Source: Naegleria gruberi (lineage: Eukaryota). From it: 64,000 bases of DNA. Positions 6,253 through 53,529 of the stretch are shown here, piece after piece. The stretch lies in NCBI GenBank assembly GCA_000004985.1, contig GG738910.1; one strand, 5' to 3'. Positions within the stretch are counted from its first letter, which is position 1, and each line of letters starts with the position of its first letter. The notes beneath the pieces were generated by a model, which did not search any database, was not told the DNA's origin, and saw only the letters and a list, made by a program, of their open reading frames with translations. The position numbers and the translations under genes were made by a program.

Positions 6253-8367
6253 TTAAACACTTGAGGAGGTTGAAGGAGAACTCACTTTCAATTGATCTTG
6301 TAATTTGGCTTGTAACTTTTTCCTGTTTTCAGCATTCTTTCTTTTGGATCTTAGTAACAGGACTGTTGTAAAGATTACAATAATCAAAATAATTAAAAGA
6401 ATGACCACCACACCAACAACACCCACAGTGATACCAATTGTTACTGCTGACTGATCAGAAGAGGTATATGTTGAGGTTTGTACCTTATTTTCACTCAGTG
6501 TCTTCTTAACAGACATGTCAATGACTCCAAATGAAGTAAGGTGACTCGTTTCACATTTGACTGATATTACAACTTGGAAATTGGTGTTATCTATTGTCTT
6601 GTTCAAGAAGGAGAGAATAGTAGTTTTCAACCCTGAAGATTCCCAAGTGTTTTTCAAAGTATTGTAATAGGCACAGGAATAATTCAAGTGCTCAGATTTA
6701 CCAATTGAAACATTGAAGAAAGCTAATGAAATTGGATCTTGTAAACCCTTGATTGCAATTTCTTGAGCCGATTGTCTGTCATAGAGTGAAATGGACATAA
6801 CTGTACTCTTCAATTTGTCACTATTCGAAAATAAAACTGGAGCAGAATTAGTGCTTGGATCGTAAATGGACGAAACTAACACAATCTCGCTTACATTATT
6901 AATTTGATCACTCATTGTCGCTGGAAATTCAAAACTAGTCTTGAAACCGTCAAAGGAAACTGATTTGGAATCAAGTTCTGTAACATCCTTCACAACTGTC
7001 AACTTTTCAACATAACCGTTTACCAAAGAAGTGTTCAAACATGTAGAATTTGCAGCCACAATCTTTCCATAACAATACTTGTATTCACAATATTGTCCAA
7101 AGTAATTTTCTTGGCATTCAACAACAGGTTCTTCCTCATTCATCCAATAATCTCCAATGTCAGTTTCTCTCCAGTCTGGTATTGTGAGATTAAGTGGTTT
7201 TGTGACGCATAATGTACCATTAGAATTAATGGAATAATTTGTTGAATTACACGAATATTCCATCATTAGAATTCTTTGATTATTGGTATCGGTTACTGTT
7301 ATGGCCATAGAGGAAACTCCTGGTTTAGACAGAATGTTGATAGACACACTTTCAGGACCTGACATGATTGTAGTTCCAGATACGGTTTGAATAATACCAG
7401 TACGCAAATCAATTCTTCTCAATCTGTGATTCCAACTGTCGGCAATGTACAAATCATTTTGTAATCCCAAGAATAAATCTCGAGGACTGTTAATCATGGC
7501 AGAAGTTGCTGCCGAACCGTCACCTGCAATACCTCCATTTCCTGTTCCACATATGGTTGAGATTATTCCAGTGGCAGCTGTTATTTTTCTGATTCTGTTG
7601 TTTTGAGTATCAGCAATATAAATGTCACCATTAGACATGATAGCAACAGCTTGAGGACCATTCAACTTGGCAGATGTTGACAATACGTTATCTGTAAATC
7701 CTGATGAACCTGCTGTTCCAGCAATTGTTGTAATAATACCAGTAAATATATCAAGTTTTCTGACAATATGGTTAAGAGTGTCTGAAATGTACAAATATTT
7801 CTGTGTTGTGGTATCGAATGTAACTCCTCTTGGACCATTAAGCATGGCTTGAGTAGCTATTTTACCATCGCCTGAAAACCCAGCTGTCAAGTTGCCAGCA
7901 ACAATAACGAGCTGACCTGTCATTAAATTTAACTTTCGAATAATATTATTACCACTCTCAGCAATGTATAACGCATTCTCTGTAGTACTCATGGTAATCT
8001 GTCTAGGTTCATTGAGTTTCGAATATCTTGCTTTGAACTTTCCACCAACGAGTGGTGATTCAGCAAAACCTTTCTCACCAGTTCCACATAAAGTCAGTAA
8101 ACTGCCATTCGAATGAATAAACTTCAATTGATGATTGCCAGTATCAGCAATCAACACTCTTGAATAATTAGAAACCCTTACTCCAGCTGGCCAAACTAGA
8201 GCATAGTTATTGCCAGCATCAGCAATAGTTTTATAACTTGTGGCCGTTGGCGTTAATTGACCATTGACATGTTGTTGATCTAGCTGTGTCAGTTGACTAA
8301 AGAGCAGAGTTGTTATGATCGTTATTATTAAATGTAGAATAGTCATAGATGAAACTGTTTGCTGCAT
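6253..8367 (-). CDS. Secreted type I membrane protein with about 6 NHL repeats (beta-propeller), a juxtamembrane GPS-like motif, one TM helix and a short basic tail ending in SSV
   Basis: 704-aa single-exon ORF. It has a signal peptide (MQQTVSSMTILHLIITIITTLLF). Repeated NHL signatures are present (YIADTGNHQLKF, YIAESGNNIIRKL, YISDTLNHIVRKL, IYIADTQNNRIRKI, LYIADSWNHRLRRI). The motif KCETSHLTSFGV lies about 35 aa before the TM (ITVGVVGVVVILLIILIIVIFTTVLLL), followed by an RSKRKN tail. Confidence 0.8.
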   Translation of the reverse strand: MQQTVSSMTILHLIITIITTLLFSQLTQLDQQHVNGQLTPTATSYKTIADAGNNYALVWPAGVRVSNYSRVLIADTGNHQLKFIHSNGSLLTLCGTGEKGFAESPLVGGKFKARYSKLNEPRQITMSTTENALYIAESGNNIIRKLNLMTGQLVIVAGNLTAGFSGDGKIATQAMLNGPRGVTFDTTTQKYLYISDTLNHIVRKLDIFTGIITTIAGTAGSSGFTDNVLSTSAKLNGPQAVAIMSNGDIYIADTQNNRIRKITAATGIISTICGTGNGGIAGDGSAATSAMINSPRDLFLGLQNDLYIADSWNHRLRRIDLRTGIIQTVSGTTIMSGPESVSINILSKPGVSSMAITVTDTNNQRILMMEYSCNSTNYSINSNGTLCVTKPLNLTIPDWRETDIGDYWMNEEEPVVECQENYFGQYCEYKYCYGKIVAANSTCLNTSLVNGYVEKLTVVKDVTELDSKSVSFDGFKTSFEFPATMSDQINNVSEIVLVSSIYDPSTNSAPVLFSNSDKLKSTVMSISLYDRQSAQEIAIKGLQDPISLAFFNVSIGKSEHLNYSCAYYNTLKNTWESSGLKTTILSFLNKTIDNTNFQVVISVKCETSHLTSFGVIDMSVKKTLSENKVQTSTYTSSDQSAVTIGITVGVVGVVVILLIILIIVIFTTVLLLRSKRKNAENRKKLQAKLQDQLKVSSPSTSSSV
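6523..6558 (-). other. GPS-like (GAIN-domain cleavage-site-like) motif C-x3-HLT-x-F-G-V in the 6253..8367 protein
   Basis: The translated sequence VKCETSHLTSFGVID matches the HL|T/S-x-F core of GPCR-proteolysis-site motifs and lies just outside the TM helix. Confidence 0.4.
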
Positions 8368-9633
8368 GTTGTACAGATGTGTGTTGTTTCTTTTTAGTTT
8401 TTGGGAATAAATCTTGTGCTGATTTAACCACCATTGGATTTACCATTGTTTCGTAAAAGGAATACACAAGCAATAGATTTTTCTGTTATCCAATAGTTCA
8501 GGAACTCTGTTTCTTAATCGGATAACATTCGGTTAAAAGACCAAATCGACAAGGACATGATGGGTACTAGAATAAAATTCTTTCATTGGCCAAGTGTGCC
8601 TCTAAAAAACCAAGTAGCCTTTCAAATGTATAACCTCACCTTGATTAAGATTTCGCACGCGGTGGACTCTAGACACAGCAGATGCTTGATGGAGGAGATT
8701 TGCCTTCTTATTTGTGTAATTGATTTTTGATGTTGAAATGACGAGATGGATATTAATACAGATCAAGCATTCCAATTTGGTCCTAAATAATGAATATTAT
8801 TTGAATGAAGAAATTGATGGTTATGGAATGTTATTTGGCTAAAGGCTTTTTGATATCATCAGGGTTGTGTACCTGTCTGTATTGCTGAAATTATCCATCG
8901 ATTGTAAATAAATACTGATGTTGGTGAGGAGAAGGAATTGTGGAGGTTGTAATACATCTTCTTATTGTTCTCCGAGGAAGAGTTTGATGTTATCAGAACA
9001 TGAAGGAACAGTTGTTGGGAATTTTTAATTTTTTAATTAAAAAATACAACAATTTCCTTCAGATCCTTGTTGTGTAGAGAAGAATGAAGATTTTAGTTGG
9101 TGATGAGGAATTTATTAAATAATAATTTTGTGATTTCTAATCTATGAATCTGTGAGCATCAAGCTATGATGTAAATGTTGATTTTCTTGGTTACATCATA
9201 AGAGCGTGAAAAAGCGAATCGGAACAACATTATAGGATAATCCAATCACGTGCATTGGTTGTTAAATGGTTAGAGTAGATATTAGGAAGAACAATTACAA
9301 CTTGTATGCTAAAGGAACAATTTATCTTTTGCAACTTTGTTCAGGGCATTTGTAGGCCTTTATGTGGACTGAAAAAAGACAATTGAGTCAGTTTACAAAA
9401 CAATCTAAAGCATTAATGACCTGAAATCAAGTCATTAGGCGGAGTTTTTTTTGACATGTGTACCTTAATCTCCGAATTTTAAGGAAGGAAAGAGGAAGTA
9501 CCACCAAATTGATCCACAATAGGGTTTGTAAAACAAACTTTTTAACAGTCTCATTCATTGTGTGGGTTTTTGAAACGATACTTTGACAATCTTTGAAAGG
9601 CCTACTTCAAGATGTTTGTGAAAAAAATTGAAA

Positions 9634-12452
9634 ATGCTGAACCGAGTCTTTCAAACTGGTGTCCTGTTGGTACTCACTCTTACTGTTTTAGTTTTGATTA
9701 TTGACAATCAACTCTGTGTAAATGCAACATTTAAACCATTGTACAAGATGAGTACTGTTGTGGGTGGTGGATTTGATGATGGTCAAGATGCTAAACAAGT
9801 TTGCCTTGCTCCAACCAAAGTCAAGTTTGATAGAAAGAGTGAGAATATTTATATTTCAGGTGAGTTTTTATTCTAAACATGCTTCAAGATTATATGATTA
9901 GATAGAATCAATAATAGAATCAGAAAGTTGGATGTGATGAGTGGAAAGATCAGCACTATTGTTGGAAATGAATTTATTGGATTTTCAGGAGATGGTCAAG
10001 CAGCAACTCTTGCTCATATCAATAATCCAGGAAAGGTTGAGGTCTCTTCAAATAATGATATTTACTTTGCTGTAAGTTCTCTTTGTTCTGTTTCTAATAC
10101 ACTCATTTCAAAAAGGACACTAACAATCACAGAATTAGAAAGGTATTTGCCAATGGAACGATTTTAACCATTGCTGGTTGTGGAGAATTTGGTTTTGATC
10201 TGGAAGAGAAATCTCCAGTTCCTGCTCTAGAAGCCAAAATCAATTATCCTAAAGCAGTTCTTCTCTCTTCTGATGAAAAGATATTGTACATTACAGATAC
10301 AGCTTCTCACATGATCAAAGCTCTTTCATTCGAAACTGGTTTAGTTTCCATTATTGCTGGCTCTTTATACCGTGATAGTTCTCAAAACTCAACGATTGTT
10401 CAAGGACCAATCAGTTTGGCTTTGAGCCCTCTGACTAGTGAGGTTTATTTTGTAGATGATGATGGTATTAAAAAGATTACTAATGAAGGAAAGATCGAAA
10501 TGATAACAAGAAATTCTAAATTTGGTGGAGATGGAGGTCTAGCAATCAATGCTGGAGTTTCAGCTGTTGATATTGAGTTTTTGGGCACTAGTAATACATT
10601 GTTAATTGCTGATTACGGCAATAATCGAATTAGAATTATTGGTACCAATGGCTTTATTGAAACCTATGCTGGTAATGGTAATGTGACTTCAAGTATTGAT
10701 GGCGAAAGAGCTTTAGATTCTCCACTGACGGCTTTTGGAGTTTCCACATCTAATGAGGGTGAAGTTTATTTTGCTGATTATGCCAGAGTTTCAGTTGTCA
10801 CCATTAATGGCTTAATCAAACACGTGGCTGGTAATGGGAAATTGCAATATTTGGGAGATGGTAATTTAGCAACCCAAAGTCAATTATTCAAGCCAAGAGG
10901 TGTTGCTGTTTCCACAAGTGGAGAGCTATTTATCAGCGATTCTGCTCAAGATACTATTCGAAAAGTTTCTACTGAAGGTGTAATTAATACCATTGCCGGT
11001 GGAACTTTTCCATTGGGAGGTTATATTCAAGATGGTGTTGACCCATTGAATACATTCCTTAATAATCCAAGCGCTCTAGAATTTTCATCAAGTTCAGGAG
11101 AATTGTTTCTTTCAGATTCTCACAATTTTAGAGTGAGAAAGATTTCAAAGGAAAATATCATTTCTACAATCGCTAACCATACCTCAATCACCAGACCACA
11201 CGGCATTGCTCTTTATAATGACTTGGTTTATGTGGCTGATTCTCAATCCAATAGAGTGATACGAGTTGATAAGAATGATGGCTCTGTAACTCTGATAGCA
11301 GGAAATGGAACTGCTGGTTATTCAGGAGATGGAAGTTTGGCTACTCAAGCTCAATTATTCAATGTTTCTGGAGTTACTGTTCTTCCTAATGGTGAAGTTT
11401 TGATTGCAGACACCAACAATCATAGAATTCGTAAGGTCAACTTGGAGGGTATTATTCAAACAATTGCTGGTACAGGAATTCCCGGATTTAATGGTGATAA
11501 TATCCTCGCCACTAGTGCTCAATTGAATTCTCCAACTGACATCGAAGTTTCTCCAGTTTCAGGTGAAATTATTATTGTTGATTCGAATAATCATCGTATC
11601 AGAAAGATTGATTCCTTTGGTAATATTTCTACAATTGCAGGAACAGGTATTGCATCATTGAGCTCACATGGTAAACTTTCCATCTATGGAAGTCTTAACA
11701 CTCCAACTACGCTTTCAATTTCTGCTTTCAGTGGTCATGTCTACATTGCAGATTACGAAAATAGAAGAATTAGAAAATTGGAACAATTTACTATTGAAAA
11801 ATACAATCTTCCAGTTCAAGATGATGGTGAATTGAGAACCGAAACTATCCAAGATTCTACAAATCTTAAAACAATTAATTATGATAATATTCAAATTGAA
11901 CCTCCAAAGGAAAGTTTAAAGAATTCAGAGCTGAGTCTTGCCACTTCAGTTTACCAAGTCGACAGAAATGGAAAATTAACATCTTTTGAAAAGTCTATTA
12001 AGAGTGGAATTGTCACTGTTGCAATTTTGGATTCTGATTGTAATGTTATAGAAAATCCATTTACTTCTCCTCTCACAATTACATTCACTGAACTTGATTT
12101 CAATTCTACATCAAACTATTCCTGTATTTCGTACAATCAAGAATCCAAAGAATGGAAGAATGATGGCTCTGTCAATGAAATTTTATCTCTTAATTCAAAA
12201 TTAACAATTTCATGCAAATTTAGCAAACTTTCATCATTTGCAATAATGGAATCAAGTGGAGGACCTAGTCCAATAATAACTGCAACCTCTTCAAATACTA
12301 ATACTTTCAGGGACGCTGGCTTGGGAACTGATGCTATTGTTGCCATTGTTGTTTCCACTGTTGGTGGTGTAGCTTTGGTTGGAATTATTATGGCTGTAAT
12401 TGTTGGAATATTGTTTATTATGAAGAGAAAGCAAAATCTTTCCAAAATTTGA
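9634..12452 (+). CDS. Secreted type I membrane protein with 9-10 NHL repeats, a juxtamembrane Cys motif and one TM. There are 3 exons, and frame discrepancies at about 10199-10201 and 10258-10262
   Basis: Exon 1 is 9634..9859 (signal peptide MLNRVFQTGVLLVLTLTVLVLI), followed by a 42-nt intron at 9860..9901 (GTGAGT...TTAG). Exon 2 is 9902..10071, followed by a 44-nt intron at 10072..10115 (GTAAGT...AAAG). Exon 3 runs from 10116 to TGA at 12450-12452. Splicing restores ...NIYISDRINNRIRKLDVMSGK... and ...NNDIYFADTNNHRIRKVFANG... Between 10199 and 10262 the conserved NHL reading (DLEEKSPVPALEAKINYPKAV) sits in the +1 frame relative to both flanks. Confidence 0.7.
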
Positions 12453-12539
12453 AATATTTAATTAAAATTTTCCTTTAGTGTGTTTGTCTAATTGTTTTTT
12501 GAATTCAATGTGGGCAAAAACTTCATAAAAAAATATTCA

Positions 12540-12975
12540 ACATTCTGCTACTAAAGTAGGACATGATGATTTTCGGAGTGGTTTTGCATCATGAAAGCAC
12601 CAAACTTTCACATCATCATCTCAACATGATCTATATAGTAGTAATAATAGTAATTTTTATTGGTGGATTATCATCATGAAATTGGAATTTATTTTTCATC
12701 ATGGAAAATCACAAGTTGGTACATCATCATCGGATCACTCACCAACCATCATCAATGTTATTTGCCATCAATATAATAATAGTATTTGTGGAATTTAATT
12801 TTTAGTAATATAATTTTGGTGAAATGTCAAAATTTTCACTAAATTCATCATCACTGCTGGATCTACTGAACAAGTTGGAAAACTGTCAATGTAGTATTGT
12901 TCGGAATGATCAATAGTAGGTAAGAGAATTTGGGCAAGTTATGATAGGGATAGGTACATGTGAATTTTGAAAAAA
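12540..12975 (+). repeat. Dispersed repeat family R, short (B-type) sub-family; truncated copy about 90 bp downstream of the stop of the 9634..12452 gene
   Basis: About 97% identical to the reverse complement of 37611..38183 and 45932..46507 over about 430 bp, and diverges after 12975. Confidence 0.7.
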
Positions 12976-14149: not shown

Positions 14150-17100
14150 GTGATGATGACGGTGACGGTACTGAGAGGAGTTAAGGGTGCAATCAATACT
14201 AACAGCGCAATATGGCACCACCCATGGAAATATTTAAAAATCATATTGCTTTGTATTTATTGGGTAGTAATTTTAAATAGTAATCATCATGTACAATGTA
14301 CAGCAACATACAAATCGAAGGTAATTGTGGGAATGACATCATTGAGTCCTTTGAACAATGTGTCAATCTCAAGTAATTATGTGATTCCCGGAAATATTTA
14401 TTTAGATAGTACTGCTGGAGTAATGTACACGACCGAAGATGCAAAAATTAGAAAGATTACTCTTTCATCGGGTATTATTTCAACACTTGTAGGTTTTCTA
14501 GAAGTTTTTAATGGTTGTTAATTTATGTGTAAAAAACAAAAGGTTGGAAGTGGTAGATTTGGAACAACATATACAACTGATCCTACGACGACTCAAATGC
14601 ATATGCCAAAAAGCTTAACACTATGGAAAACACACTTAATTTGGATTGATGGATATGTGAGAATTAGAAAATTGGATTCATCCACTAATCAAGTTTCGGT
14701 AATTTTTGGTGCAGGAAATGGAAACTCTGACAATACTGTTACAAATCCTCTCTTGGTTCGATGTGGTTCTTCTTTGTCAATAACTGTAGATCCTTCAGAT
14801 AATATTTATTTTGCAGATTTTGGTAAGTATTAATTCTTTGAAGTTACTTGACATTGGAAAAGATAATGTGATGGTAAGAAAAATTGACGGGACTACCAAT
14901 GTAGCTAGTGTTTACAATTATTACCCTAGTGGTTTATTGGGTTATCCAGTTCAAATCAAATATTGTAATGGAGGCCTTTATGTATATGTAAATGATAACG
15001 TTAATTTCTATATTCAAAAATTGACGGAAAGTGATGGAACTGTTTATGCAAGCGTAGAGGTTGGAGGTGGTTCATCAAAAAGTACAGGTATTTCTGGAAC
15101 TTCCTATCAAATGGATGCCACTAACTATGTTACCAAGATGGACTGTTACAATAATGAGCTTTATTGGAATGCGTACGATTATAGCATTAGAAAACTAACA
15201 ACTGGTGGAATTGTGGAACAGGTTTTGGGAAATGGATATAGAGGTGAGTCAGAAGATGGAACCATTACATCATCTTCAATAATTGGTTACATTGAATACT
15301 TAACTATTGATCAGGCGAATGGTGATCTTTACTTTGCTGAAAATAATTACAACATTAGAAAACTTGTTGGAACTACTTTGTCTTCATTTTTGCATTATAG
15401 AAATGTATTGAATGAAGGAAATCCAAAAACTCTTCCATTAGTTACAAAGGCAATTGCTTTATACAGTGATGGAATTTATTTGGCTGAACCAAACAGTATT
15501 AAGTTTTACAATTTAACAAGTTCAACAATTAAGCATTTTGCGGGATATTTTTATCTTCCATATAACAACAAAGCCCCAATAGGATCTTTAAATATTGGAG
15601 GTTCTTATGTGACTGCTAGATATTCTAGCATTCTATCTATGACATGCACTCCAACAGGAGATATCTATTTGAGTGAGTATTATATGAATTTTCATTCAAA
15701 ATTGATTTAATAGTTGATAATCATTATCCTGGATTTTTTATCAAATTACTGTCAAAGAGCACGGGTTTAGTTACAATAGTAGCTGGCACAGCTTCTGCAT
15801 TAGAGTGTGTTAATGGAAATACTCCAACTGCTTGTGCTATTACTGTAAGTATTTTTCTCTCATTTATTGTTTCCAATTTTATTCTAGAATGCCAAAAATA
15901 TACAATATTACAATGGTGAGGTCTATTTTGCAACAGATATCTACATTTACAAAATCAGCTCATCAACTGGAAAGATTGAGATTGTTTTAGGAGGCGGTAC
16001 TTTCACTTCTGATGGTGCATCTTCATCAGCAAATATTGCAACGCTTGGTACGTTAATTGTCATTCTCTTTCATTTAATTCTTTTATAGGTGCTTTTACGA
16101 TACGACCATCAGATGGAAAGATATATTACTTTCAACAAATCGGTTTTACGTTTTATCTCAAAGTTTTCTCTACTTCAACAGTTACAACACTTTTTACTGT
16201 AAGTGTTGATTGAACTATTTAATCTAACTTAATTAAGACCTCTTCTGTTCCTCTTGTCCCATTCAGTCTTTATGTAAACGACAACGGTTATGTGTACTAC
16301 ACTGATAGTATGACTAATACTGTTAAACTTTTCACACCTACAACAGCTAATGCTAACACTGGTACACTTACGTCATATGCTGGTAATAGTTTTGGAACAT
16401 ATAATGATGGAGAAACTCTGGCTAATACCAAGTTCACTACACTTGTAGGTTTGACTTTTTCCAACGATAACAACTTGATGTTTGTTGCAGACGATAAACT
16501 CAGAATAATTTACAAGGAGTGTGATGCAAATTATGGTGGAGATTATTGTAATCTACCCTATTGTTACTCGATTAGATCTGATGACTCCACTGTTTGTAAT
16601 TCTAATGGAAATTGTACAGATGTTAACAATTGTTTGTGTTCAAATGGTTTCTCAGGTGCTAATTGTTCTTCTTGGACTTGTAATGGATATTCAAATTCTC
16701 TTACAACTGGCTGTTCTTATCATGGTACTTGTACATCATATAACACTTGTAATTGCTCATCTAATTATTATGGATCTAATTGCTCAATTACAACATGTAA
16801 TGATATTTATTCTAATTCAAGTGAAGTTTGTTTAGGAAGAGGTATATGTGCTCAAGTAGACGATTGCCATTGTGAATTTGGTTTTACAGGCAATAATTGC
16901 CAAAATTACAACTGCTCTGGAATTGCTTTTGACAATTCCAGTGTCTGCTCTTCCAGAGGATTGTGTTTATCTCCAAATAATTGTTCTTGTCAAAGTGGGT
17001 TTTTTGGAAATGAGTGTCAACACTATAATTGTTATGGAATTCTCGCTAATTCGTCTCAAGTTTGTTCCTCAAGTGGTGTATGTTCATCTCCAAATAATTG

Positions 17101-38183: not shown

Positions 38184-38253
38184 TTGAATATTTTTTTATG
38201 AAGTTTGTTGTGAGCGAGGTATGTTGTAGATTGCTGAAAAGAACAAGAGCCAT

Positions 38254-41200: not shown

Positions 41201-43920
41201 TTGTAGTCCGTGTTAAGTTCAATTGAGAATTCAAACGTTTCCTTGTTAGACCAGTAACATTTTGGATTAGTTCCAAGAAGATCAATACTCTTCAACAACT
41301 TGTTACAATCAAGAATCATACTATTAGTATATAAAGAAGAATAAGATGCAGGTGCAATAACCTTAAATGTCAAACCAGTCAAATCATCCATAAAAAGAAC
41401 TGGTCCAATAATCTTTGTTGAACACAATTCACCATAAACTCCATCTGCACAGGTAGAACAAGATTCACCCTTCCAGAAACCTTTCTTGTTATCTGCATAA
41501 CAAGTACATTGTTCAAGCTCATTACAATAACCATTTCCACTACAAGTAGTTGAGGCATTACATTTAACCAAACTATTACACATAGCTCCTAAATAAGGAG
41601 AAACACATGCTGAACAATCTGCACCAGTCCAATAACCTTTGCCAGCTATGTTATCACAGACACAAATATTCAAATCTGTACATTGACCATGTCCAGAACA
41701 AACAGATGAAGCATTGGAAGAAATGCCACCACAAGTGAATTGAGCACAATGACTTCCGTAATATCCAGATTGACAAGAACAATGATCGAAAAAATCACAT
41801 CTACCTTTTCCATAACATGCTGACGCATTTGTTGAGGCAGTTCCATAACAATCAAATTGACTACAATCATATCCAGTAGTATCCATCTAAACAGGAGCAA
41901 TTATTTGGGGAGATGCAACCACCATGTCCATAACATGCTGAACCACTTGTTGAGGCAGTTCCATAACAATCAAATTGACTACAATCATTCCCGTAGTATC
42001 CATCTAAACAAGAACAATTATTTGGTGAGATGCAACCACCATGTCCAGAACATGCTGATGCATTTGTGGAGGCAGTTTCGTAACAATCAAATTGACTACA
42101 ATCATTTCCGTAGTATCCATCTAAACAAGAACAATTATTTGGTGAGATGCAACCACCATGTCCAGAACATGCTGATGCATTTGTGGAGGCAGTTTCGTAA
42201 CAATCAAATTCACTACAATCATTTCCATAATATCCAGCTAAGCATGAACAGTTATTTGGTGAGACACAACGACCATAACTAGAACAAACTGAACCACTTG
42301 TTGAGGCAGCTCCAAAACAATCAAACTCAGCACAGTCATTTCCGTAATGTTCGTTAGAGCATGAGCAATTATTTGGTGAGATGCAATCACCATGTCCAAA
42401 ACAAACTGAACCACTTGTTGAGGCAGTTCCAAAACAATCAAACTCAGCACATTCATTTCCATAGTATCCAGAGGTGCATGAACAATTATTTGGTGCAATA
42501 CAATAGCCATTTCCAGAGCAAGCTGATGAATTACTTGGTGAAATATCAAAACATTTGAAAGAACTGCAATCTGATCCACTATATCCAGCTAAGCATGAGC
42601 AGTTATTTGGTGAGAGACAGGTTCCATGAACAGAACATGCTGATGCACTTTTTGAGGCAGTTCCAAAACAATCAAATTGGCTACAATCATTTCCATAGTA
42701 ATCGTTTGAGCATGAGCAATTATTTGGTGAGAGACATATTCCTTGAGAAGAACAAACTGATGAAGAAGTAAATAATGTACCAAAACATTCGTATTCACTA
42801 CAATTACTACCATAGTATCCATAGGTGCATGAACAATTATTTGGAGCAATGCAACTACCATGACCAGAACAAACTGATGCATTACCTGGAGCAATGTCAT
42901 AACATTTGAATAAACTACAATCAGCACCACTGTATCCAGATAAACAGGAGCAATTGTTTGGAGCAACACAACTTCCATGTCCTGAGCAAACGTTGTGGTC
43001 AGTATTCAAAATATCACTACAATTAAAAAGTTGACAATCTGCACCAAAGTAATTTGTTTCACATTTACAAGTATCTATGGCTGTACATGTTCCGTGGCCT
43101 GAGCAAACAGTTGAGTTGTCACCTGAAATTCCATTACATGTTGGATATTGACAAGTGTTTGGAGCAACACATGTGGTATATTGAGGACATGCTTTTGGAT
43201 GTGTGGCCACAATACCATTACACTTTGGAGTTTGACAATTTGAACCACCCCAAAGTACACCATAATCTGTCAAGCTGCCAGGAGGAAAAAAAGTATCCTT
43301 TCCAAACCCATGGAAAGGAAAAGTTAAACAAGCACCTTTAGTATTGTTAGCGAAATAATCAGACACTTGAAGTACTAACCTTCTAAAGAATAAAGAACCA
43401 TGTTCCCATCAACTTGGAGAACAAATTTGAAAGGTGGAGACTGACTAGCACACTCACCAGTTTTCATGGCTTCCCTGTGTTGATTCAAATCTGCCTTTTC
43501 CGTGTTACCGTCGTACAATTTAAGAGAACCAGTTTGTGTTAACACTAACTTATAACCATCAGTTGCTGGGCCGAAAGTAGAACTATACCGAGTCATTGTT
43601 CTGAGACCTATCTGAATGAGACTACCATCATCGTTCAAGATTAAAGTCAACTTTCCATCAGCAGATGTTAATGCTTTAGTTGCATAGAGAATTGGTGATT
43701 GTTCAGTGAGGCCTGTTTTTTCTGAAAGATCAACACAGAGGCAGCTGTTTTCACCATAGCAAATATTCCCTCCACAAGTCGAATTGTCTGTTCCAGGAAT
43801 TCCATTACAAGTATATGAAGTAACCTCACTGATTATGAAAAGCAAAAGGATTACCAACACCGACACGAACAGTTTCATGTTGTGGATTTTTTTTAAAGTC
43901 GAATTTTCAAATTGAATCAA
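38254..43920 (-). CDS. Large (about 1,870 aa) secreted type I membrane protein. Domain order: signal peptide, bulb-type (GNA-like, beta-prism II) lectin domain, about 19 tenascin-type EGF repeats, laminin-type EGF, PKD/REJ-like region, CxC-ISP module, GPS-like motif, TM, tail ending in KSV. It has one intron and one apparent +1 frameshift
   Basis: Exon 1 is 43920..43380 (MKLFVSVLVILLLFIISEV signal peptide). The lectin signatures are GKLTLILNDDGSLIQ, YKLVLTQTGSLKLYD and FKFVLQVDGNMVLYS (QxDxNxVxY type). A 44-nt intron at 43379..43336 (GTTAGT...AAAG, phase 1) joins ...LYSLE-G-ACLTFPFHGFGKD in frame. The EGF array is then continuous to 41867. At about 41884-41890 (tactacTggatatgattgt) one extra base breaks the repeat consensus ...CSCLDGYYG(N/Y)DCSQFDC..., and the downstream 1210-aa ORF (41886..38254) continues the same array in the other frame. 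Further landmarks are the ACSCAISPTSGIALTTIFTFNCENCQN motif, GQCECSENVRVGIL juxtamembrane, and TM at about 38330-38400. Confidence 0.72.
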
Positions 43921-44394: not shown

Positions 44395-45890
44395 CTGTGC
44401 AAATAACTTAGAAAAATATTTCAAAAATATTGGATCAACATCAGCTGTTGATTCTTGGAGTGATTTCACATCTATTAACTCCAAGAATTTCACCACATCA
44501 TCTCATCATGATTTAAATAATAGTATTAATAGTAATTTTTGGAATTTAATTCTTCATCATGATTTGGAAATAATTTTATTATTTGGATAAATTCAAGTTG
44601 GTACATGATCATCGGAACAACTACCAACCATCATCATTGTTATTTATCATCATTATAATAGTAATGTTTGTGGAAATAAATCTGATAATAGTAATATTTT
44701 AGTGAAATTTAATATGTTCACTAAAATCAGCATCACTGCCAGATTCACATGATAATTTGGAAAACTTTTAATCTAGTATTGTTCAGAATGGTCAATTTCA
44801 TCAGGTAAAATCACTTCCGAACATTTTCCTATTGGTTATTATGATGTCAAAATGTAAATGGACTATATCTCAACATGTACTTCACCAACTTGGAAAATGT
44901 CTTTTAGTACTACTATTTAAATACATAATAAACAATATATTTATTATCAGTTTTTCATCATTTTTTGTTTTTGTCAACTTCGGAATATCTGTGGAAATGT
45001 TTTTCCCGTATTTTTGCAATGCTCCTTACAAAAAAGGAAATATTAAATTTAATACTTAGTGAAATAAAAATATTATTTATTATTCTTGTTCTAATTGATG
45101 TTTTCTACAATATTCTGTTTTATTGAATATCAGTTATTTGTATTAACCAAGAAAACATGCTCGTCTTACTACCACATATGAAAATTTTGAAATCACTTTT
45201 CTCGATAAGTAAAGAGCCAAATCCGTAACAAACTTGATATTATGATTGTTAACATAATTAATAATGACCATACGGTATGTTTCTCTAACATCCAGTGTTG
45301 TTATTGAGATATGCTTTGTTGAAGTTGAGTGAATTTGCTTAAGTAAATTACTTGGCGCATCCAATTACCCCTACAGGTAAATCAGCTTTGGGAGCATTCC
45401 ATGTTTTTTGGGAGCATCACAAAAATGCGCCACAGATATTCATGATAACAAATCATGATTCATGCCAAAAGTACAAAGTCAATCATCTTGAAACATTAAT
45501 AAACTTTTATTAGTACTATTGTAGATGTACCGTGCCAATTATTTCGTCTTGTTTCGTTGAAATCATGAAGATTTTGATATTTCTGCTTTTAATTAAATTT
45601 CACATCACCTACACCATATTTGATGATGTAAACTAGTCTAGTTGCATCTAAATAATCCATTGTTGCTTCTCTAATCATGCTTTATTGTTATTCAGTGTAT
45701 TCAGGATTTAGAAATCTTGCGAATTATCCTGAGGTTATTCTTCATATAAATATGATTCCTCATATCATGATATGAGGAGGTATTGATATCATGATTGTTT
45801 GGAAGTGTTGTACAAATTTTGGACATTTTCTGAATCGAAATCAGGTAGAAAGAGTCAAATCTTTAACACCATATAAAATATAACTGTTTT
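44395..45890 (+). repeat. Dispersed repeat family R, A-type; copy interrupted by a nested insertion (44989..45435). It lies about 470 bp upstream of the 5' end of the minus-strand 38254..43920 gene
   Basis: Collinear with 53690..54745 and 56213..57285 except for the 447-bp insertion. It contains a perfect 20-bp palindrome cctcatatcatgatatgagg at 45758..45777. Confidence 0.75.
44989..45435. mobile_element. MITE-like non-autonomous insertion nested in repeat copy R (A-type), with imperfect terminal inverted repeats and a 4-bp ATAT target-site duplication
   Basis: The uninterrupted copies read ggaatattcatgataac. Here the sequence reads ggaATAT[ctgtggaaatgtttttcccgtatttttgcaatgctcc ... gggagcatcacaaaaatgcgccacag]ATATtcatgataac. 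The termini CTGTGG...CCACAG are inverted, with an internal matching atttttgYRatgctcc. There is no coding capacity, and the element is about 447 bp. Confidence 0.45.
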
Positions 45891-45931
45891 TAATTGAAGT
45901 AAGCTAAATGATAGAGATTGTTGCCCGACAA

Positions 45932-46507
45932 CATGATGAAAATCTGATAATAAATATGATGTTTATTATCTATTTAAATAGTAGTACTAAAAGACATGAT
46001 TCAAGTTGGTGAAGTACATGTTGAGTTATGGTCCATGTACTTTTTCAAAATTCACATGTACCTATCCCTATCATAACTTGACCAAAATTGATAAGAGAAA
46101 GTTCTCCTACCTACTATTGACCATTCCGAACAATACTATATTGACAGTTTTCCAACTTGTTCAGTAGATCCAGCAGTGATGATGAATTTAGTGAAAATTT
46201 TGACATTTCACCAAAATTTAGTACTAACAATTAACTAAAAATTAATTTCCACAAATACTATTATTATATTGATGGCAAATAACATTGATGATGATTGGTG
46301 AATGATCCGATGATGATGTACCAACTTGTGATTTTCCATCATGAAAAATAAATTCCAATTTCATGATGATAATCCACCAATAAAAATTACTATTATTACT
46401 ACTATATAGATCATGTTGAGATGATGATGTGAAAGTTTGGTTGTTTCATGATGTAAAACCACTCCGAAAATCATCAATGTTAAATATTTTTTAAACTTGG
46501 TTTTTGT
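45932..46507 (-). repeat. Dispersed repeat family R, B-type; inverted relative to the adjacent A-type copy at 44395..45890, and about 450 bp upstream of the 46962 gene
   Basis: Near-identical to 37611..38183. Confidence 0.75.
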
Positions 46508-46961: not shown

Positions 46962-49900
46962 ATGAACCTTAAAAAAATGAAAACATTTCTTGTTTGCTGC
47001 TTGATTTTAATAATCATTTGCACTGTCTCATCNNNNNNNNNNNNNNNNNNNNNNNNNNNNNNNNNNNNNNNNNNNNNNNNNNNNNNNNNNNNNNNNNNNN
47101 NNNNNNNNNNNNNNNNNNNNNNNNNNNNNNNNNNNNNNNNNNNNNNNNNNNNNNNNNNNNNNNNNNNNNNNNNNNNNNNNNNNNNNNNNNNNNNNNNNNN
47201 NNNNNNNNNNNNNNNNNNNNNNNNNNNNNNNNNNNNNNNNNNNNNNNNNNNNNNNNNNNNNNNNNNNNNNNNNNNNNNNNNNNNNNNNNNNNNNNNNNNN
47301 NNNNNNNNNNNNNNNNNNNNNNNNNNNNNNNNNNNNNNNNNNNNNNNNNNNNNNNNNNNNNNNNNNNNNNNNNNNNNNNNNNNNNNNNNNNNNNNNNNNN
47401 NNNNNNNNNNNNNNNNNNNNNNNNNNNNNNNNNNNNNNNNNNNNNNNNNNNNNNNNNNNNNNNNNNNNNNNNNNNNNNNNNNNNNNNNNNNNNNNNNNNN
47501 NNNNNNNNNNNNNNNNNNNNNNNNNNNNNNNNNNNNNNNNNNNNNNNNNNNNNNNNNNNNNNNNNNNNNNNNNNNNNNNNNNNNNNNNNNNNNNNNNNNN
47601 NNNNNNNNNNNNNNNNNNNNNNNNNNNNNNNNNNNNNNNNNNNNNNNNNNNNNNNNNNNNNNNNNNNNNNNNNNNNNNNNNNNNNNNNNNNNNNNNNNNN
47701 NNNNNNNNNNNNNNNNNNNNNNNNNNNNNNNNNNNNNNNNNNNNNNNNNNNNNNNNNNNNNNNNNNNNNNNNNNNNNNNNNNNNNNNNNNNNNNNNNNNN
47801 NNNNNNNNNNNNNNNNNNNNNNNNNNNNNNNNNNNNNNNNNNNNNNNNNNNNNNNNNNNNNNNNNNNNNNNNNNNNNNNNNNNNNNNNNNNNNNNNNNNN
47901 NNNNNNNNNNNNNNNNNNNNNNNNNNNNNNNNNNNNNNNNNNNNNNNNNNNNNNNNNNNNNNNNNNNNNNNNNNNNNNNNNNNNNNNNNNNNNNNNNNNN
48001 NNNNNNNNNNNNNNNNNNNNNNNNNNNNNNNNNNNNNNNNNNNNNNNNNNNNNNNNNNNNNNNNNNNNNNNNNNNNNNNNNNNNNNNNNNNNNNNNNNNN
48101 NNNNNNNNNNNNNNNNNNNNNNNNNNNNNNNNNNNNNNNNNNNNNNNNNNNNNNNNNNNNNNNNNNNNNNNNNNNNNNNNNNNNNNNNNNNNNNNNNNNN
48201 NNNNNNNNNNNNNNNNNNNNNNNNNNNNNNNNNNNNNNNNNNNNNNNNNNNNNNNNNNNNNNNNNNNNNNNNNNNNNNNNNNNNTAACTCTAAGTACAAT
48301 GGTGATTATCAATATGCAACAAATGCCAATTTGAATTATCCATTGGGTGTTTTGATTACACCTAATGGAGAAATGATCATTTCAGAAACATACGGTAACA
48401 GGATTCGCAGAGTATTAACAAATGGAACTATCATTCCACTGGCAGGGAGTGGAAGTTCAAATGATTGTGCAGGTATTACAGCATCTAACACTCCATTGGT
48501 AAGTCCAAAAGGAACTTATTTTAGTGCGAATGGAGATATTTATGTAGCTGAAACTCAAGGTCATAGGATTAGTAGAATTTCAAAGAATGGAATGATTGAC
48601 TCTATTGCTGGTACAGGTAAATTTGGTTTTAATGGAGATAATTTATTTGCTACAGATACACAATTATCAAATCCTTTTGCAGTTGCCTTTGATCTAGAAA
48701 CCCAATTGATTGTCTCAGATTCTGGTAATCATGTCATTCGTAAAATTCTTAGAAATGGAACAATGGTCATTATTGCTGGAACTGGACAATCAGGATATAA
48801 TGGAGATGGAATTGATGCTAAGATTGCAAAATTAAATAATCCATCAGGTATTGTTGTGGATTCTAAAACTGGTGAGCTTTTTATTGCTGACACTGCTAAT
48901 AATAGAATTAGAAAGATTTTAACAAACGGTACTATAATAACTATTGCTGGAACAGGTGAAACAGGATATAATGGAGATGGAATTGATGCAACAAGCGCTC
49001 AAATAAGAGGCGTGTATGGTATTGCCCTTGATGTTAATTCTGAGCTCTACATTGCTGATGCTAATAATTATAGGATTAGAAAGATTTTATCAAATGGAAC
49101 AATTATAACTATTGCTGGAAATGGAGGCTATGGTTTCATTGATAATGTTCTTGCAACAAATGCCAAACTTGCTTTCGTTAATGGAATTGCTGTAGATACG
49201 AACGGTGAAGTTTATATTACTGAGTCTGAGAATGGATTTTCAAATCATCGAATTCGTAAAATATTGACAAATGGAACCATTATAACATTTTCAGGAACTG
49301 GTTCAAGAGGTTATTATGGTGATAATGTGGAAGCAGCTGATGCCAAATTCTATACTCCTTATTTCGTTTCTGTTCGCCAAACAACAGGTGAGGTGCTTAT
49401 TTCAGATACTGGAAATAATTTCTTGAGATTGGTTTCAACAACTCGTCTATGCAATGGAACTCTAGCAAGTGATCCTATGGTTTGTAGTGGGCACGGAATA
49501 TGTTATTTAACAGATGTTTGCACTTGTAACCCTGGCTATATTGGTTCATTATGTGATGTTGTGGCATGTAATGGTTTCAATTCGAGTGATCCTAGAGCTT
49601 GTAATGGACATGGTATTTGTGAAGGACCAAACATTTGTAATTGCACTACAGGTTATGTTGGTTCATTTTGTGATGTTTCTTTGTGTTATGGTTTCAATTC
49701 GAGTGATTCAAGAGTTTGTAATGGACATGGTATTTGTGAAGGACCAGATATTTGTAATTGCAGCACAGGTTATATTGGCCCACTATGTGATGATGTGGCA
49801 TGTGATGGTTTCAATTCAAGTGATTCAAGAGCTTGTAATGGACATGGTATCTGTGAAGGACCAAACATTTGTAATTGCAGCACAGGTTATATTGGTTCAT

Positions 49901-52900
49901 TTTGTGATGTTGTGGCATGTGATGGTTTTAAAATAAGTGATCCTAGAGCTTGTAATAGACATGGTATTTGTGAAGGCCCAAACATTTGTAATTGCACTAC
50001 AGGTTATGTTGGTTCATTTTGTGATGTTTCTTTGTGTTATGGTTTCAATTCGAGTGATCCTAGAGTTTGTAATGGACATGGTATTTGTGAAGGACCAGAT
50101 GTTTGCAATTGTACCACAGGTTATGTTGGTTCATTTTGTGATGTTGTGGCATGTGATGGTTTCAATTCAAGTGATTCAAGAGCTTGTAATAGACATGGTA
50201 TTTGTGAAGGCCCAAACATTTGTAATTGCACTACAGGTTATGTTGGTTCATTTTGTGATGTTTCTTTGTGTTATGGTTTCAATTCAAGTGATCCTAGAGT
50301 TTGTAATAGACATGGTATCTGTGAAGGCCCAAACATTTGTAATTGCACTACAGGTTATGTTGGTTCATTTTGTGATGTTTCTTTGTGTTATGGTTTCAAT
50401 TCGAGTGATCCTAGAGCTTGTAATGGACATGGTATTTGTGAAGGACCAGATGTTTGCAATTGTACCACAGGTTATGTTGGTTCATTTTGTGATGTTTCTT
50501 TGTGTAATGGTTTCAATTCGAGTGATCCTAGAGTTTGTAATGGACATGGTATCTGTGAAGGCCCAAACATTTGTAATTGCAGCACAGGTTATATTGGCCC
50601 ACTTTGTGACGNNNNNNNNNNNNNNNNNNNNNNNNNNNNNNNNNNNNNNNNNNNNNNNNNNNNNNNNNNNNNNNNNNNNNNNNNNNNNNNNNNNNNNNNN
50701 NNNNNNNNNNNNNNNNNNNNNNNNNNNNNNNNNNNNNNNNNNNNNNNNNNNNNNNNNNNNNNNNNNNNNNNNNNNNNNNNNNNNNNNNNNNNNNNNNNNN
50801 NNNNNNNNNNNNNNNNNNNNNNNNNNNNNNNNNNNNNNNNNNNNNNNNNNNNNNNNNNNNNNNNNNNNNNNNNNNNNNNNNNNNNNNNNNNNNNNNNNNN
50901 NNNNNNNNNNNNNNNNNNNNNNNNNNNNNNNNNNNNNNNNNNNNNNNNNNNNNNNNNNNNNNNNNNNNNNNNNNNNNNNNNNNNNNNNNNNNNNNNNNNN
51001 NNNNNNNNNNNNNNNNNNNNNNNNNNNNNNNNNNNNNNNNNNNNNNNNNNNNNNNNNNNNNNNNNNNNNNNNNNNNNNNNNNNNNNNNNNNNNNNNNNNN
51101 NNNNNNNNNNNNNNNNNNNNNNNNNNNNNNNNNNNNNNNNNNNNNNNNNNNNNNNNNACCAAAATTCAAATGTTTCGACTCTAGTTACCATTCAAACAAG
51201 CTCTGAACAATTATATGCAAACCTTTTTATTGATACTATTTCCAGTAAGAAGGTAACACTTGTGGTTGCAAATCAAGATTTAGAACAAAGTAATGAAGCG
51301 GAAACTTGGAGTTACGTTTGTCAAGATGAAAATTTTACTAATTGTGGTCAGACAATTGCCAATATTCTCTCGAATTATGCTTCTATCAAATCTAAAACTT
51401 TGGAATTATCAGCAGATAATTTCCCATCCATTGATTCCACATATTCAATTACTTTAAACATTGTAAAGGGAGTAAGAAGTTTTTCATCTTTAATTTCCTT
51501 GAAATTTCCAAAAGAAAACCAAAAACTTCCTCCAATAGTTAACTTATTGAATGTTATTCCAAATAGAAACAGATTAAGCAAATCTGAATTTTTGAATTTA
51601 CAAATTTCTGTCACTAACAGTGATGGATTGGATGTCAAAAATTTAAAAAGAGAATGGAAATTGAATGGACAATCAATTGATGATAACTATTTAACCAAGA
51701 TGAGTACAGCATTATCAGATTCTAACAATATCGTTTTAAGTATCACCTATTTAGATGAAGGTTCATCTAACGTATTGACATGTCAAGTCACAGATTTGGA
51801 TAGTCAATTGTCAAGCACTTTTAGTTACTCATTTTCAATTATTACATCACCTAAACCATGTCCATGTTCAGTTTCACCATCTACAGGATATGCGTTAGAA
51901 ACAGAATTTACCTTCTCATGCACAAACTGCCAAAATAAGGACAATACTCTAGCATTTAGTCTATCATTTGTAGATGATAAATCTGGAGCTCTTATTCCAC
52001 TTGTAATTGAAGGTGGAAACACATTTACCACAAAGCTTCCATATCCAATTTCCAATCCATTAATGTTTGACATTACAATTGTTGACATAGAGACACTTGC
52101 ATCAGTTCAAAACTATCAAAACATTCAGATGATTTTACCAAAAGCAAGTTCTGTTCGTGAAGTCAAAACAAAAGTTGCCAAGTGGAATACTTTCCAAACT
52201 TCACTTCAACAAAATGATTTGAGAAGAATGATTTTCTCATCTGCAATTATTTCTAGAACCTCTGAGGCAATGATTTCAGCAATCAGTGGAAGAAGATCTA
52301 TTTGTTTGAACGGCGGAGTTTATAATTCTCAATTAAGAAAATGTATTTGTGTGAATGGATACAAAAAGAAAGATTGCAGCCTTAATGAAGAAGATTTCAC
52401 ATTGTTAACTGAATTTAAAGGTGAATTATTTAATAACTTTTTATTTGCATTCAAAAACAGACAAGAACAAATGTCTGAAATGTATATCATCTATCAATTA
52501 TATGGCTTGGATTCACTTTTATCAAATTATGATGAATTGAATGCTGAGATGTTTGCAAATGGAGTCCAATTCTTCAAGGATTTAATATCTTCCGCTGTTA
52601 GTGTTTCTAATTTACATCTAAGACCTGGAATTGACAAATTAACTCAAAATATTATCAACTCACTTTACAGATATTTGATTTATAATGGATGTATTGAAAA
52701 GGAATGTTTGAGAGATCATGTTATTGAAATGATAAGCATGTTGAAAGAAATTTCACAACTATTACTCAGATCCAAACTTGTAGGAGAAAGTGATCTGAAA
52801 TTAGACACTGATTTTATGGTGTTATTGACAAATAAGAACTATAGATACCATTTCAATAGTTTGAAAGTTCAAAATTTAACTTTACCTACCAATGATGAAG

Positions 52901-53529
52901 GAATTTCTTCAATTAATAACAGAATGCTATTGTCTTTCATTTCAACTAGTTCACATAATTTGGCCAACAAAATTGAGTCAACAATTGAAGTTTATGAGAA
53001 GGTAGAAAATAATAGAAAAGAGACTCAAACAATCACCAAGGATTATTCTATTACTTCAAATGTTATAAGTTTTTCCTTTTTAAGAGACCTCCAAATGAAT
53101 CAATCCATTTCCTTCTCCTTCCCTAGAAATGATCAATTTTCCGCAAGAAGCGAGCAATCATTCGAATATTCATGTATTGTAATTTGGAATATCACTCAAG
53201 TTAGACCAGAAAATGAAAATAATAATTGTAAAATAGTTGTCAACCAAGAAACAATTATTTGTCAATGTCCATATCAAAACCAAACTCAAGTAGGTGTTTT
53301 GAGAACAGCCATTTCGAGACGTGTTTCAGTTGAACAAGTAGCTCAACCTTCAGATTCAAGTAATTTACTCTATCTATTATTTTTACTCTTTTTAGTATTG
53401 TTTATTATTTTAATTGTAATAATAATTGGAATTGTTATTGTATGTCTGGTTAAAAGAAGGAGAAATGGTGGTAGTAAAAAGTCAGCAGCACATGTTGAAA
53501 TGGAGACTGTTAAAACTTCGACAGTTTAG
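46962..53529 (+). CDS. Large secreted type I membrane protein interrupted by two assembly gaps. Domain order: signal peptide, [gap], about 8 NHL repeats, at least 9 near-identical 40-aa EGF repeats, [gap], PKD/REJ-like region, CxC-ISP module, GPS-like motif, TM, tail ending in STV
   Basis: ATG at 46962 (or 46977) opens MNLKKMKTFLVCCLILIIICTVS, which then runs into the N-gap. The frame reopens at 48285 (...NGDYQYATNANLNYPLGVLITPNGEMIISETYGNRIRRV...) and is continuous, through the second gap as X, to TAG at 53527-53529. Landmarks are the PCPCSVSPSTGYALETEFTFSCTNCQN motif, IICQCPYQNQTQVGVL juxtamembrane, and TM LLYLLFLLFLVLFIILIVIIIGIVIVCLV. Exon structure inside the gaps is unknown. Confidence 0.68.
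47033..48284. other. Assembly gap (1,252 N) inside the 46962..53529 gene
   Basis: Run of N. Confidence 1.
49555..50611 (+). repeat. Coding tandem repeat, period 120 bp (40 aa: CDV(V/S)(A/L)C(D/Y/N)GFNSSD(S/P)R(A/V)CN(G/R)HGICEGP(N/D)(I/V)CNC(T/S)TGY(V/I)G(S/P)(F/L)). There are about 9 near-identical copies, running into the gap at 50612
   Basis: Successive 120-nt units differ at only a few positions. The array is truncated by the N-gap, so the copy number is unknown. Confidence 0.8.
50612..51157. other. Assembly gap (546 N) at the end of the 120-bp EGF tandem array
   Basis: Run of N immediately after repeat unit 9. Confidence 1.

Follow-up and report, generated by a model that had tools for sequence, protein, structure and literature searches.

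A stretch of 64,000 nucleotides of Naegleria gruberi DNA (NCBI GenBank assembly GCA_000004985.1, contig GG738910.1), referred to here as the window, carries six large genes, g1 to g6, that had been predicted to encode paralogous giant surface receptors and to lie at a chromosome end. The question raised by this locus is what such a cluster represents: a variant or recognition locus diversified by its position, as the original prediction suggested, a group of signalling subunits, a collection of decaying copies, or a gathering of older adhesion proteins. The last of these is favoured here as the probable answer, namely that the locus encodes six anciently diverged, intact-looking type I surface glycoproteins, from a family expanded in Naegleria and its relatives, with a role in adhesion or recognition.

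Domain architecture of the six proteins

All six genes were found at the positions originally predicted, except that g5 starts at 43878 and not at 43920 (Table 1). Every one encodes an N-terminal hydrophobic signal, a single C-terminal transmembrane (TM) segment and a short tail of 8-50 residues, as had been proposed, and the density of NxS/T sequons (1.2-3.6 per 100 residues) and a cysteine content of up to 6.4% fit ectodomains. Pfam matches, judged by gathering threshold (25 bits for REJ, PF02010, and 22.5 bits for GPS), placed REJ above the cutoff in g3, g4, g5 and g6 (56.7, 96.2, 78.2 and 75.1 bits, respectively), NHL/TEN_NHL in g1 (72.7 and 73.3 bits for the two models), g2, g4 and g6, and EGF_2, EGF_TEN and EGF_Teneurin in g3-g6, with a K319L-like PKD domain that passed its threshold in g5 but not in g4. 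NHL, EGF, REJ and PKD, all of them named in the original prediction, were so recovered, and GPS and B_lectin were not. Custom hidden Markov models (HMMs) gave approximately 24 EGF units in g4, approximately 15 in g5, at least 12 in g3 and at least 10 in g6, and approximately 6 NHL blades in g1, approximately 12 in g2, at least 22 in g4 and at least 7 in g6.

Read from the N-terminus, g4 consists of a signal peptide, NHL-type blades arranged in approximately four to five propeller modules with EGFs between the modules, a 16-unit EGF array, the sub-threshold PKD, REJ, a further EGF, GAIN, a four-cysteine GPS-like motif, the TM segment and a 25-residue tail. The layout of g5 runs from a signal peptide and head through its EGF units, PKD, REJ, EGF and GAIN to a GPS-like motif, TM segment and 25-residue tail, and that of g6 from a signal peptide and NHL blades through EGF units, REJ, EGF and GAIN to a four-cysteine GPS-like motif, TM segment and a tail of the same length. 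A propeller-like head, EGF units, REJ, a helical and beta GAIN-like region, a degenerate four-cysteine GPS, the TM segment and a 50-residue tail make up g3; its head has no Pfam match, and at least seven weak NHL-like blades were detected there by the custom NHL-blade HMM. The single architecture that had been proposed for the whole cluster is limited to these four genes, because g1 and g2 have neither an EGF array nor PKD/REJ as judged by Pfam (no REJ match in either). The former comprises a signal peptide, an NHL propeller, a Cys-rich linker, a short GAIN-B/GPS module, the TM segment and a 38-residue tail, and the latter a signal peptide, two NHL propellers, a GAIN-B/GPS-like module, the TM segment and a 9-residue tail. 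In outline the predicted structure stands: large type I proteins in which EGF stalks carry NHL or lectin-like heads, with PKD/REJ and a GPS-bearing juxtamembrane module of predicted GAIN fold.

Very short GT-AG introns of 42-49 nt fall inside the NHL- and lectin-coding parts, and their excision restores a perfect repeat consensus, in g2 for instance that of the NHL blades (...IYISD/RINNRIRKL... and ...DIYFA/DTNNHRIRKV..., with the slash at the junction). Within the last approximately 12 residues of the tails of g4, g5 and g6 lies a motif, [VI]-E-[LM]-x-x-[VF] (QFELRNV, GVEMKSV and HVEMETV, respectively), which was also found in many N. gruberi paralogues, in P0043 of N. lovaniensis and in the metagenomic P0061 and P0064, and which is a candidate trafficking or adaptor site.

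The juxtamembrane module and its cleavage site

The GPS-like motif that had been assigned to all six proteins found no support above threshold in Pfam, where only g1 gave a match and that a sub-threshold one (17.6 against 22.5 bits, E 0.0057). The assignment is upheld instead by a conserved cysteine motif, by profile comparison and by a predicted fold. In the alignment, four GPS-spaced cysteines are invariant in g3-g6 and the N. gruberi paralogues and precede a hydrophobic strand, after which comes the TM segment. The C-terminal 441 residues of g5, as modelled by AlphaFold (predicted local distance difference test, pLDDT, 75.3; predicted template modelling score, pTM, 0.64), fold into five to six helices, a beta sandwich and a TM helix, and by this predicted fold the juxtamembrane module is a GAIN domain. 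In g1 and g2 only approximately 170-230 residues separate the last NHL blade from the GPS, and an hhalign comparison of these two proteins with the GAIN alignment matched the beta half and brought the GPS motifs into register (89.5% probability, E 2e-6). Comparison of the g1/g2 profile with solved structures, using a query that included the last blade, returned NHL proteins only and no GPS or GAIN entry.

Among the six, the canonical H-L-T cleavage triad occurs only in g1 (SHL/TSFGV), in which the second Cys pair of the GPS (C2/C4) has been lost together. The corresponding positions read KLS in g2 (KLSSFAI, the histidine being lost) and are degenerate in g3-g6, so that, on these residues, cleavage competence would be confined to g1 and absent from g2-g6.

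A possible arrangement of the full-size proteins g3-g6 at the amoeba surface, from the outside inward, would be a head consisting of one to approximately five NHL beta-propellers or, in the case of g5, of a bulb-lectin-like module, then a long and rigid stalk of EGFs, PKD/REJ, one EGF, GAIN, the TM segment and a tail of approximately 25-50 residues, with g1 and g2 as minimal versions made up of propeller(s), the beta half of GAIN and the TM segment. Such proteins may serve in adhesion or recognition, with the substrate, bacterial prey glycans or other cells as ligands, the EGF array acting as a rigid spacer and PKD/REJ together with GAIN as a force-bearing base. Because the catalytic histidine has been lost, GAIN would remain uncleaved in five of the six and could act there as a permanent force-bearing, membrane-proximal cap rather than as a self-cleaving switch; g1, which keeps H-L-T, may autoproteolyse into a non-covalent heterodimer. 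Given the shortness of the tails, signalling would be expected to pass through partner proteins or through the conserved tail motif.

Relatives of the family

Relatives were sought by an exhaustive profile HMM search with the REJ-to-TM region as query, which returned 727 proteins at E<=1e-3 and 35 at E<=1e-30. N. gruberi itself has at least 20 diverged paralogues, distributed over at least 14 scaffolds, and members are also present in N. lovaniensis and Willaertia magna; the best matches, all from these three species, each have a single C-terminal TM segment. Weaker matches came from metagenomes, read-archive assemblies and Percolomonas cosmopolitus, and in these the REJ-EGF-GPS cassette is kept. 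These relatives are multi-TM proteins with 7-8 helices, their GPS is Pfam-significant and has the canonical site C-x-C-x-H-[LT]-T-x-F, and as REJ-EGF-GAIN proteins they apparently form an undescribed class of REJ-bearing receptors resembling adhesion G-protein-coupled receptors (GPCRs). Across the family the GPS forms a graded series, from canonical through K/R/Q-L-T-N-V-F to the degenerate form of the N. gruberi single-pass proteins; the single-pass Naegleria branch thus appears to be derived, with cleavage competence mostly lost.

The multi-TM relatives are P0022, P0049, P0051, P0053, P0054, P0059 and P0065, and their TM helices match no Pfam seven-transmembrane (7TM) or channel model. One of them, P0049, carries an RCC1 propeller as its head instead of NHL.

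These relatives bear on an alternative explanation, in which the proteins of the cluster serve an ion channel or a G-protein pathway as its regulatory or sensory subunits and adhesion is secondary. A ligand or shear acting on the ectodomain would be passed via GAIN to a partner channel or 7TM protein, as with polycystin-1 and PKD2, the part played by SpREJ1 in the acrosome reaction providing a second model. The REJ-EGF-GAIN cassette is indeed common to relatives with a canonical GPS and 7-8 TM helices, Naegleria possesses GPS-bearing 7TM-RGS receptors (P0012, P0015; PMC9283941), and antibodies to the single-TM SpREJ1 raise intracellular calcium in sperm and trigger the acrosome reaction (PMC1934368). 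However, five of the six have lost the catalytic histidine, which makes exposure of a tethered agonist by cleavage unlikely, and g1-g6 have no PLAT, coiled coil or channel domain, with tails of only 8-50 residues. This explanation is therefore considered unlikely, although it is the strongest of the alternatives.

Age of the cluster

Within the conserved C-terminal part, g4, g5 and g6 are mutually 25-32% identical and g1 and g2 are 24-25% identical, and g3 is tied to the other cluster members only through alignment. The nearest paralogues of g3 (P0173/P0174, 49% identity) and of g6 (P0002, 55%) are encoded on other scaffolds. Such low identities, together with the location of the nearest g3 and g6 paralogues elsewhere, indicate that the cluster is an old assembly that joins different subfamilies. 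That it arose by tandem expansion in recent times, which was considered as a separate candidate, is ruled out by the 25-32% identities and the closer paralogues on other scaffolds. In a second public N. gruberi-like assembly g1 is 99.7% identical (2 of its 704 residues differ), and for two further members of the family the identity to proteins of that assembly is 97.6-97.9%, values for which there is no genome-wide baseline for comparison.

These comparisons bear on the case for a variant surface-protein, allorecognition or mating-recognition locus, in which the subtelomeric position would drive diversification of the heads, and alleles or paralogues would tell self from non-self or distinguish mating partners, in the manner proposed for the SpREJ1-3 lectin domains in gamete recognition. 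Several features of the locus are in keeping with it, in that the cluster is subtelomeric and flanked by dispersed and tandem repeats, the heads differ among paralogues in NHL blade number and in the lectin-like head of g5, EGF copy number varies between genes whose units are partly homogenised, and in N. lovaniensis the distance of two relatives from contig ends is 2-32 kb; positive selection has, in addition, been reported for sea-urchin REJ lectin domains (PMC1934368). However, the many recently duplicated, recombining copies of a variant-antigen family were not found here, the closest pairs being 25-55% identical, and there are no near-identical copies and no gene-conversion tracts between cluster members. 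The cluster paralogues are further from one another than g3 and g6 are from their nearest paralogues elsewhere, g1 is almost unchanged in the second assembly, and the Willaertia relative has an internal position beside MCM2, among housekeeping genes. Deep divergence of this order argues against a rapidly turning-over family, and the idea, which had been part of the original prediction, gained no positive support beyond position and varied heads; it is regarded as quite improbable.

Of the two N. lovaniensis relatives, P0010 (NHL-EGF-TM; contig PYSW02000046.1, L001) lies approximately 2-6 kb from the contig end, beside which no telomere repeat was found, and P0043 (NHL-EGF-REJ-TM; contig PYSW02000025.1, L002) lies approximately 32 kb from the contig end and is followed by three 120-residue genes spaced approximately 1.5 kb apart. 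Two positions in N. lovaniensis and one in Willaertia are too few for any subtelomeric bias to be judged.

A more far-reaching version, to which a very low probability is attached, would take REJ-EGF-GAIN as an ancient, pre-animal mechano-adhesive module, the non-cleaving single-pass Naegleria branch of which was recruited to subtelomeres for self/non-self or mating recognition. Were this so, each NHL or lectin head would read a different surface ligand, and the family would be a protist counterpart of sea-urchin REJ gamete recognition. To our knowledge, a sexual cycle has never been observed in Naegleria.

Integrity of the genes

The annotated model of g5 contains an 'intron' with GT..AG ends that spans a +1 frameshift in one of the 117-nt EGF units. 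Unit-by-unit comparison places the frameshift in an extra T, GGATACTAC-T-GGATATGAT as against GGATACTACGGAAATGAT in the adjoining EGF units, and the P0001 model, in which the frameshift is skipped, yields an aberrant, malformed EGF unit. A sequencing error could account for the extra T, as could an allelic difference or a mutation that turned the gene into a pseudogene. An open reading frame (ORF) within g5, at 38254-41886 on the minus strand, is 99% identical to an N. gruberi 'predicted protein'.

A frameshift masked by an annotated intron is what would be seen if some or all of the six genes were decaying subtelomeric copies, non-functional relics in a repeat-rich chromosome end, and the repeats and gaps that surround the genes and the loss of catalytic GPS residues in five of the six point the same way. 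Against this, the window has a GC content of approximately 33% and uses the standard code, and at that composition its long uninterrupted ORFs, of 704 to 4078 codons, are very unlikely without selection. The intron positions restore a perfect NHL consensus, cysteines and domain boundaries are kept across paralogues at approximately 25-30% identity, and g1 is nearly identical in the second assembly. Decay is accordingly the least probable of the explanations considered, and the favoured one remains that of intact-looking adhesion or recognition proteins.

The g5 head had been predicted to be a lectin. No Pfam B_lectin match was obtained even at E<=10, and what remains of the prediction is a set of weak phmmer matches to solved structures (garlic and snowdrop lectins and pyocin L, E 5e-4 to 0.2) and one clear motif, LQVDGNMVLY, of the QxDxNxVxY type, bulb-type lectins being defined by three QxDxNxVxY subdomains.

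Several points weigh against the reading of the six genes as intact adhesion proteins. The adhesion or recognition function is suggested by architecture alone, and the GAIN fold comes from a predicted model built on a 9-sequence alignment. GAIN-B in g1 and g2 depends on motif and profile only, because the g1 model was poor (2-sequence alignment, pLDDT 41). The head of g5 may be called bulb-lectin-like on weak grounds and is not proven to be so, and that of g3 was recognised only by a custom HMM, with weak E-values. With its frameshift in the EGF array g5 may be a pseudogene or mis-sequenced, and g6 is incomplete, with N gaps interrupting both its NHL head and its EGF array.

Chromosome end, repeats and neighbouring features

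The predicted location at a chromosome end is borne out by a terminal array of 46.5 perfect TTTGGG copies, the G-rich strand of which runs 5' to 3' outward to the end of the window, and which is separated by approximately 330 bp from a preceding tandem duplication. From the array and the duplication together it follows that the locus is a true chromosome end, the right-hand subtelomere of an N. gruberi chromosome, and the cluster of six genes ends approximately 10 kb inward of the telomere. Among the papers listed in the literature searched, no relevant description of Naegleria telomeres or subtelomeres, including the telomere repeat, was found.

A dispersed repeat shared between the intergenic regions had also been predicted, and it is present as eight copies, in two subfamilies, of an AT-rich unit of approximately 1.05 kb. 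Four copies start 110-380 bp past a stop codon in gene-sense orientation, namely those of g2, g5, g6 and the AT-hook ORF listed in Table 1. Rfam and tRNA scans, which detected no RNA genes anywhere in the window, gave no match to the repeat, so that it is not a recognisable RNA-derived element; nor does it contain a long ORF. It may be a non-autonomous transposon or an element belonging to 3' flanks. Homogenisation of internal repeats, a further part of the original prediction, is seen in g5 and g6, whose EGF units, of 117 nt (39 residues), have in part become homogenised (78% matches in g5 and 86-91% in g6); in g3 there is one repeat pair at 96%.

Table 1. Positions of genes, domains, repeats and other features in the window
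Feature	Position	Strand	Remarks
g1	6253-8367	-	704 residues, single exon; identical to EFC38228 / NAEGRDRAFT_53244
g1 GPS motif	6517-6681	-	YSC..W..(22)..KCETSHL/TSFGVID
g2	9634-12452	+	910 residues, 3 exons
g2 GT-AG introns	9860-9901, 10072-10115	+	42 nt and 44 nt
g3	~14153-22405	+	~2.6 thousand residues; several short introns in first 2 kb
g3 REJ	19787-21112	+	
g3 GPS	21992-22135	+	Degenerate, four-cysteine
g3 TM	22190-22252	+	
g4	23745-37050	+	4418 residues; annotated as P0027
g4 GT-AG intron	24736-24784	+	49 nt
g4 REJ, best stretch	35017-35718	+	
g4 GPS-like motif	36718-36846	+	Four-cysteine
g4 TM	36910-36972	+	
g4 C-terminal tail with motif	36973-37050	+	
g5	38254-43878	-	1835 residues as annotated; P0001 / EFC38229
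g5 C-terminal tail with motif	38254-38331	-	
g5 TM	38332-38394	-	
g5 GPS-like motif	38452-38577	-	
g5 GAIN (predicted fold)	~38449-39300	-	
g5 REJ	39511-40410	-	
g5 PKD	40492-40665	-	
Annotated 'intron' in g5	41820-41892	-	73 nt, GT..AG; spans +1 frameshift
Short GT-AG intron	43336-43379		
g6	46962-53529	+	At least 2.1 thousand residues; annotated partial protein P0028
g6 REJ	51301-52221	+	
g6 GPS-like motif	53167-53310	+	Four-cysteine
g6 TM	53389-53451	+	
g6 C-terminal tail with motif	53452-53529	+	
Dispersed repeat, partial copy, subfamily B	12564-12914	+	112 bp 3' of g2 stop codon
Dispersed repeat	22680-23360	-	Between g3 and g4
Dispersed repeat, subfamily B	37614-38144	-	Between convergent g4 and g5; 110 bp downstream of g5 stop codon
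Dispersed repeat	44400-45888	+	Carries 450-bp insertion; between divergent g5 and g6 5' ends
Dispersed repeat	45928-46476	-	Inverted relative to 44400-45888; between g5 and g6 5' ends
Dispersed repeat	53690-54720	+	160 bp downstream of g6 stop codon
Dispersed repeat, full unit	56215-57260	+	~1.05 kb
Subtelomeric tandem duplication	58870-63387	+	Unit ~2.3-2.5 kb, 83-93% identity; holds 50-N gap
Assembly gaps (N runs)	47033-48284, 50612-51157, 63034-63083		First two inside g6
Telomere	63722-64000	+	46.5 TTTGGG copies
177-residue ORF	55300-55835	+	Between two dispersed-repeat copies; marginal AT-hook match (E 0.0046); low-complexity Asn- and Ser-rich sequence
Centromere-side neighbour	2036-3697	+	GT61-family glycosyltransferase, Pfam 76 bits
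Centromere-side neighbour	3775-4473	-	Weak Pcf11-like zinc-finger and Clp1-interaction matches

Novelty and comparison with known systems

The domain combination had been put forward as undescribed. For REJ plus GPS on a single-pass lectin/EGF scaffold this does not hold, because SpREJ1, SpREJ8 and SpREJ9 have already been described; for the NHL-propeller head it does, so far as the literature searched goes. In that literature no paper joining Naegleria with the REJ or GAIN domain was found, nor, among the papers listed, one joining it with polycystin or PKD1. Also undescribed there are NHL heads on a REJ/GAIN scaffold, an additional EGF placed between these two domains, a loss of the catalytic site as widespread as that seen here, and the heterolobosean expansion. 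The family is an uncharacterised one, and no new molecular principle is revealed by it. Its value lies rather in offering, within one family, a natural series of GAIN domains from canonical H-L-T to fully degenerate. It also yields, relatives in N. lovaniensis included, approximately 20 or more giant proteins of the Naegleria cell surface that are candidates for adhering to the substrate or recognising prey.

Among the systems with which the window proteins may be compared, the teneurins share the NHL propeller and EGF repeats, as reflected in the Pfam TEN_NHL, EGF_TEN and EGF_Teneurin matches. However, the type II orientation, the YD shell and the toxin-like C-terminus of teneurins have no counterpart in the window proteins, which are type I with REJ/GAIN instead and gave no RHS/YD or Tox-GHH Pfam match. 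Ectodomains with GPS, EGF and lectin domains have been described in the same genus on the 7TM-RGS proteins Nf 7TM RGS1-4 of N. fowleri (PMC9283941), and the Naegleria 7TM-RGS receptors (P0012, P0013, P0015) likewise have an EGF-rich ectodomain and a membrane-adjacent GPS. They differ in having a canonical C-x-C-x-H-T-T GPS, seven TM helices and an RGS box and no REJ, whereas the full-size window genes encode REJ, one TM segment and no RGS. Unlike adhesion GPCRs, the six window proteins have no 7TM region after GAIN, each having a single TM segment, and only g1 has H-L-T; sequence identity to the GAIN domains of CELSR1, BAI3, GPR110, GPR126 and latrophilin is only 9-14%. Among non-animals, Tetrahymena and Dictyostelium are known to possess GAIN domains (PMC3321182).

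Polycystin-1 (PKD1) and the PKD1-like proteins show the same order of PKD repeat, REJ, GAIN/GPS and membrane, with Pfam REJ scores of 57-96 bits in the window proteins. Of the features that define the PKD1/REJ family (Gunaratne et al.), a GPS/GAIN domain beside the first TM segment is present in the cluster, and REJ is present in g3-g6 and absent from g1 and g2. In contrast to polycystin-1 proper, the window proteins have no PLAT/LH2 domain, no 11-TM region with TRP-like last six helices and no C-terminal coiled coil: neither a PLAT nor a PKD_channel Pfam match was obtained in g1-g6, and there is one hydrophobic segment after the GPS. A complete ectodomain of the polycystin-1/REJ type, with PKD, REJ and GAIN, is found in Discoba, far from animals, which bears on whether GAIN began as a structural cap or as a switch that cleaves itself.

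The sea-urchin proteins SpREJ1, SpREJ8 and SpREJ9 each have one predicted TM segment (PMC1934368), SpREJ1 combining C-type lectin modules with one EGF and a REJ domain, and GPS is among the domains frequently contained in SpREJ proteins (PMC1934368, PMC2120838). Like g3-g6, they are large type I glycoproteins with a carbohydrate-binding/EGF N-terminus, REJ, a juxtamembrane GPS, one TM segment and a short tail. They are distinguished from the window proteins by heads that are C-type lectins and not NHL beta-propellers or bulb-lectin-like modules, by one EGF where g3-g6 have arrays of 10-24 units and an extra EGF between REJ and GAIN, and by an animal rather than a heterolobosean host; in the window, moreover, the catalytic histidine has been lost in five of the six proteins, and g1 and g2 are without REJ. 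With single-pass and multi-pass versions side by side, the family should be useful for tracing the origin of receptors that contain GAIN, the adhesion GPCRs and polycystins.

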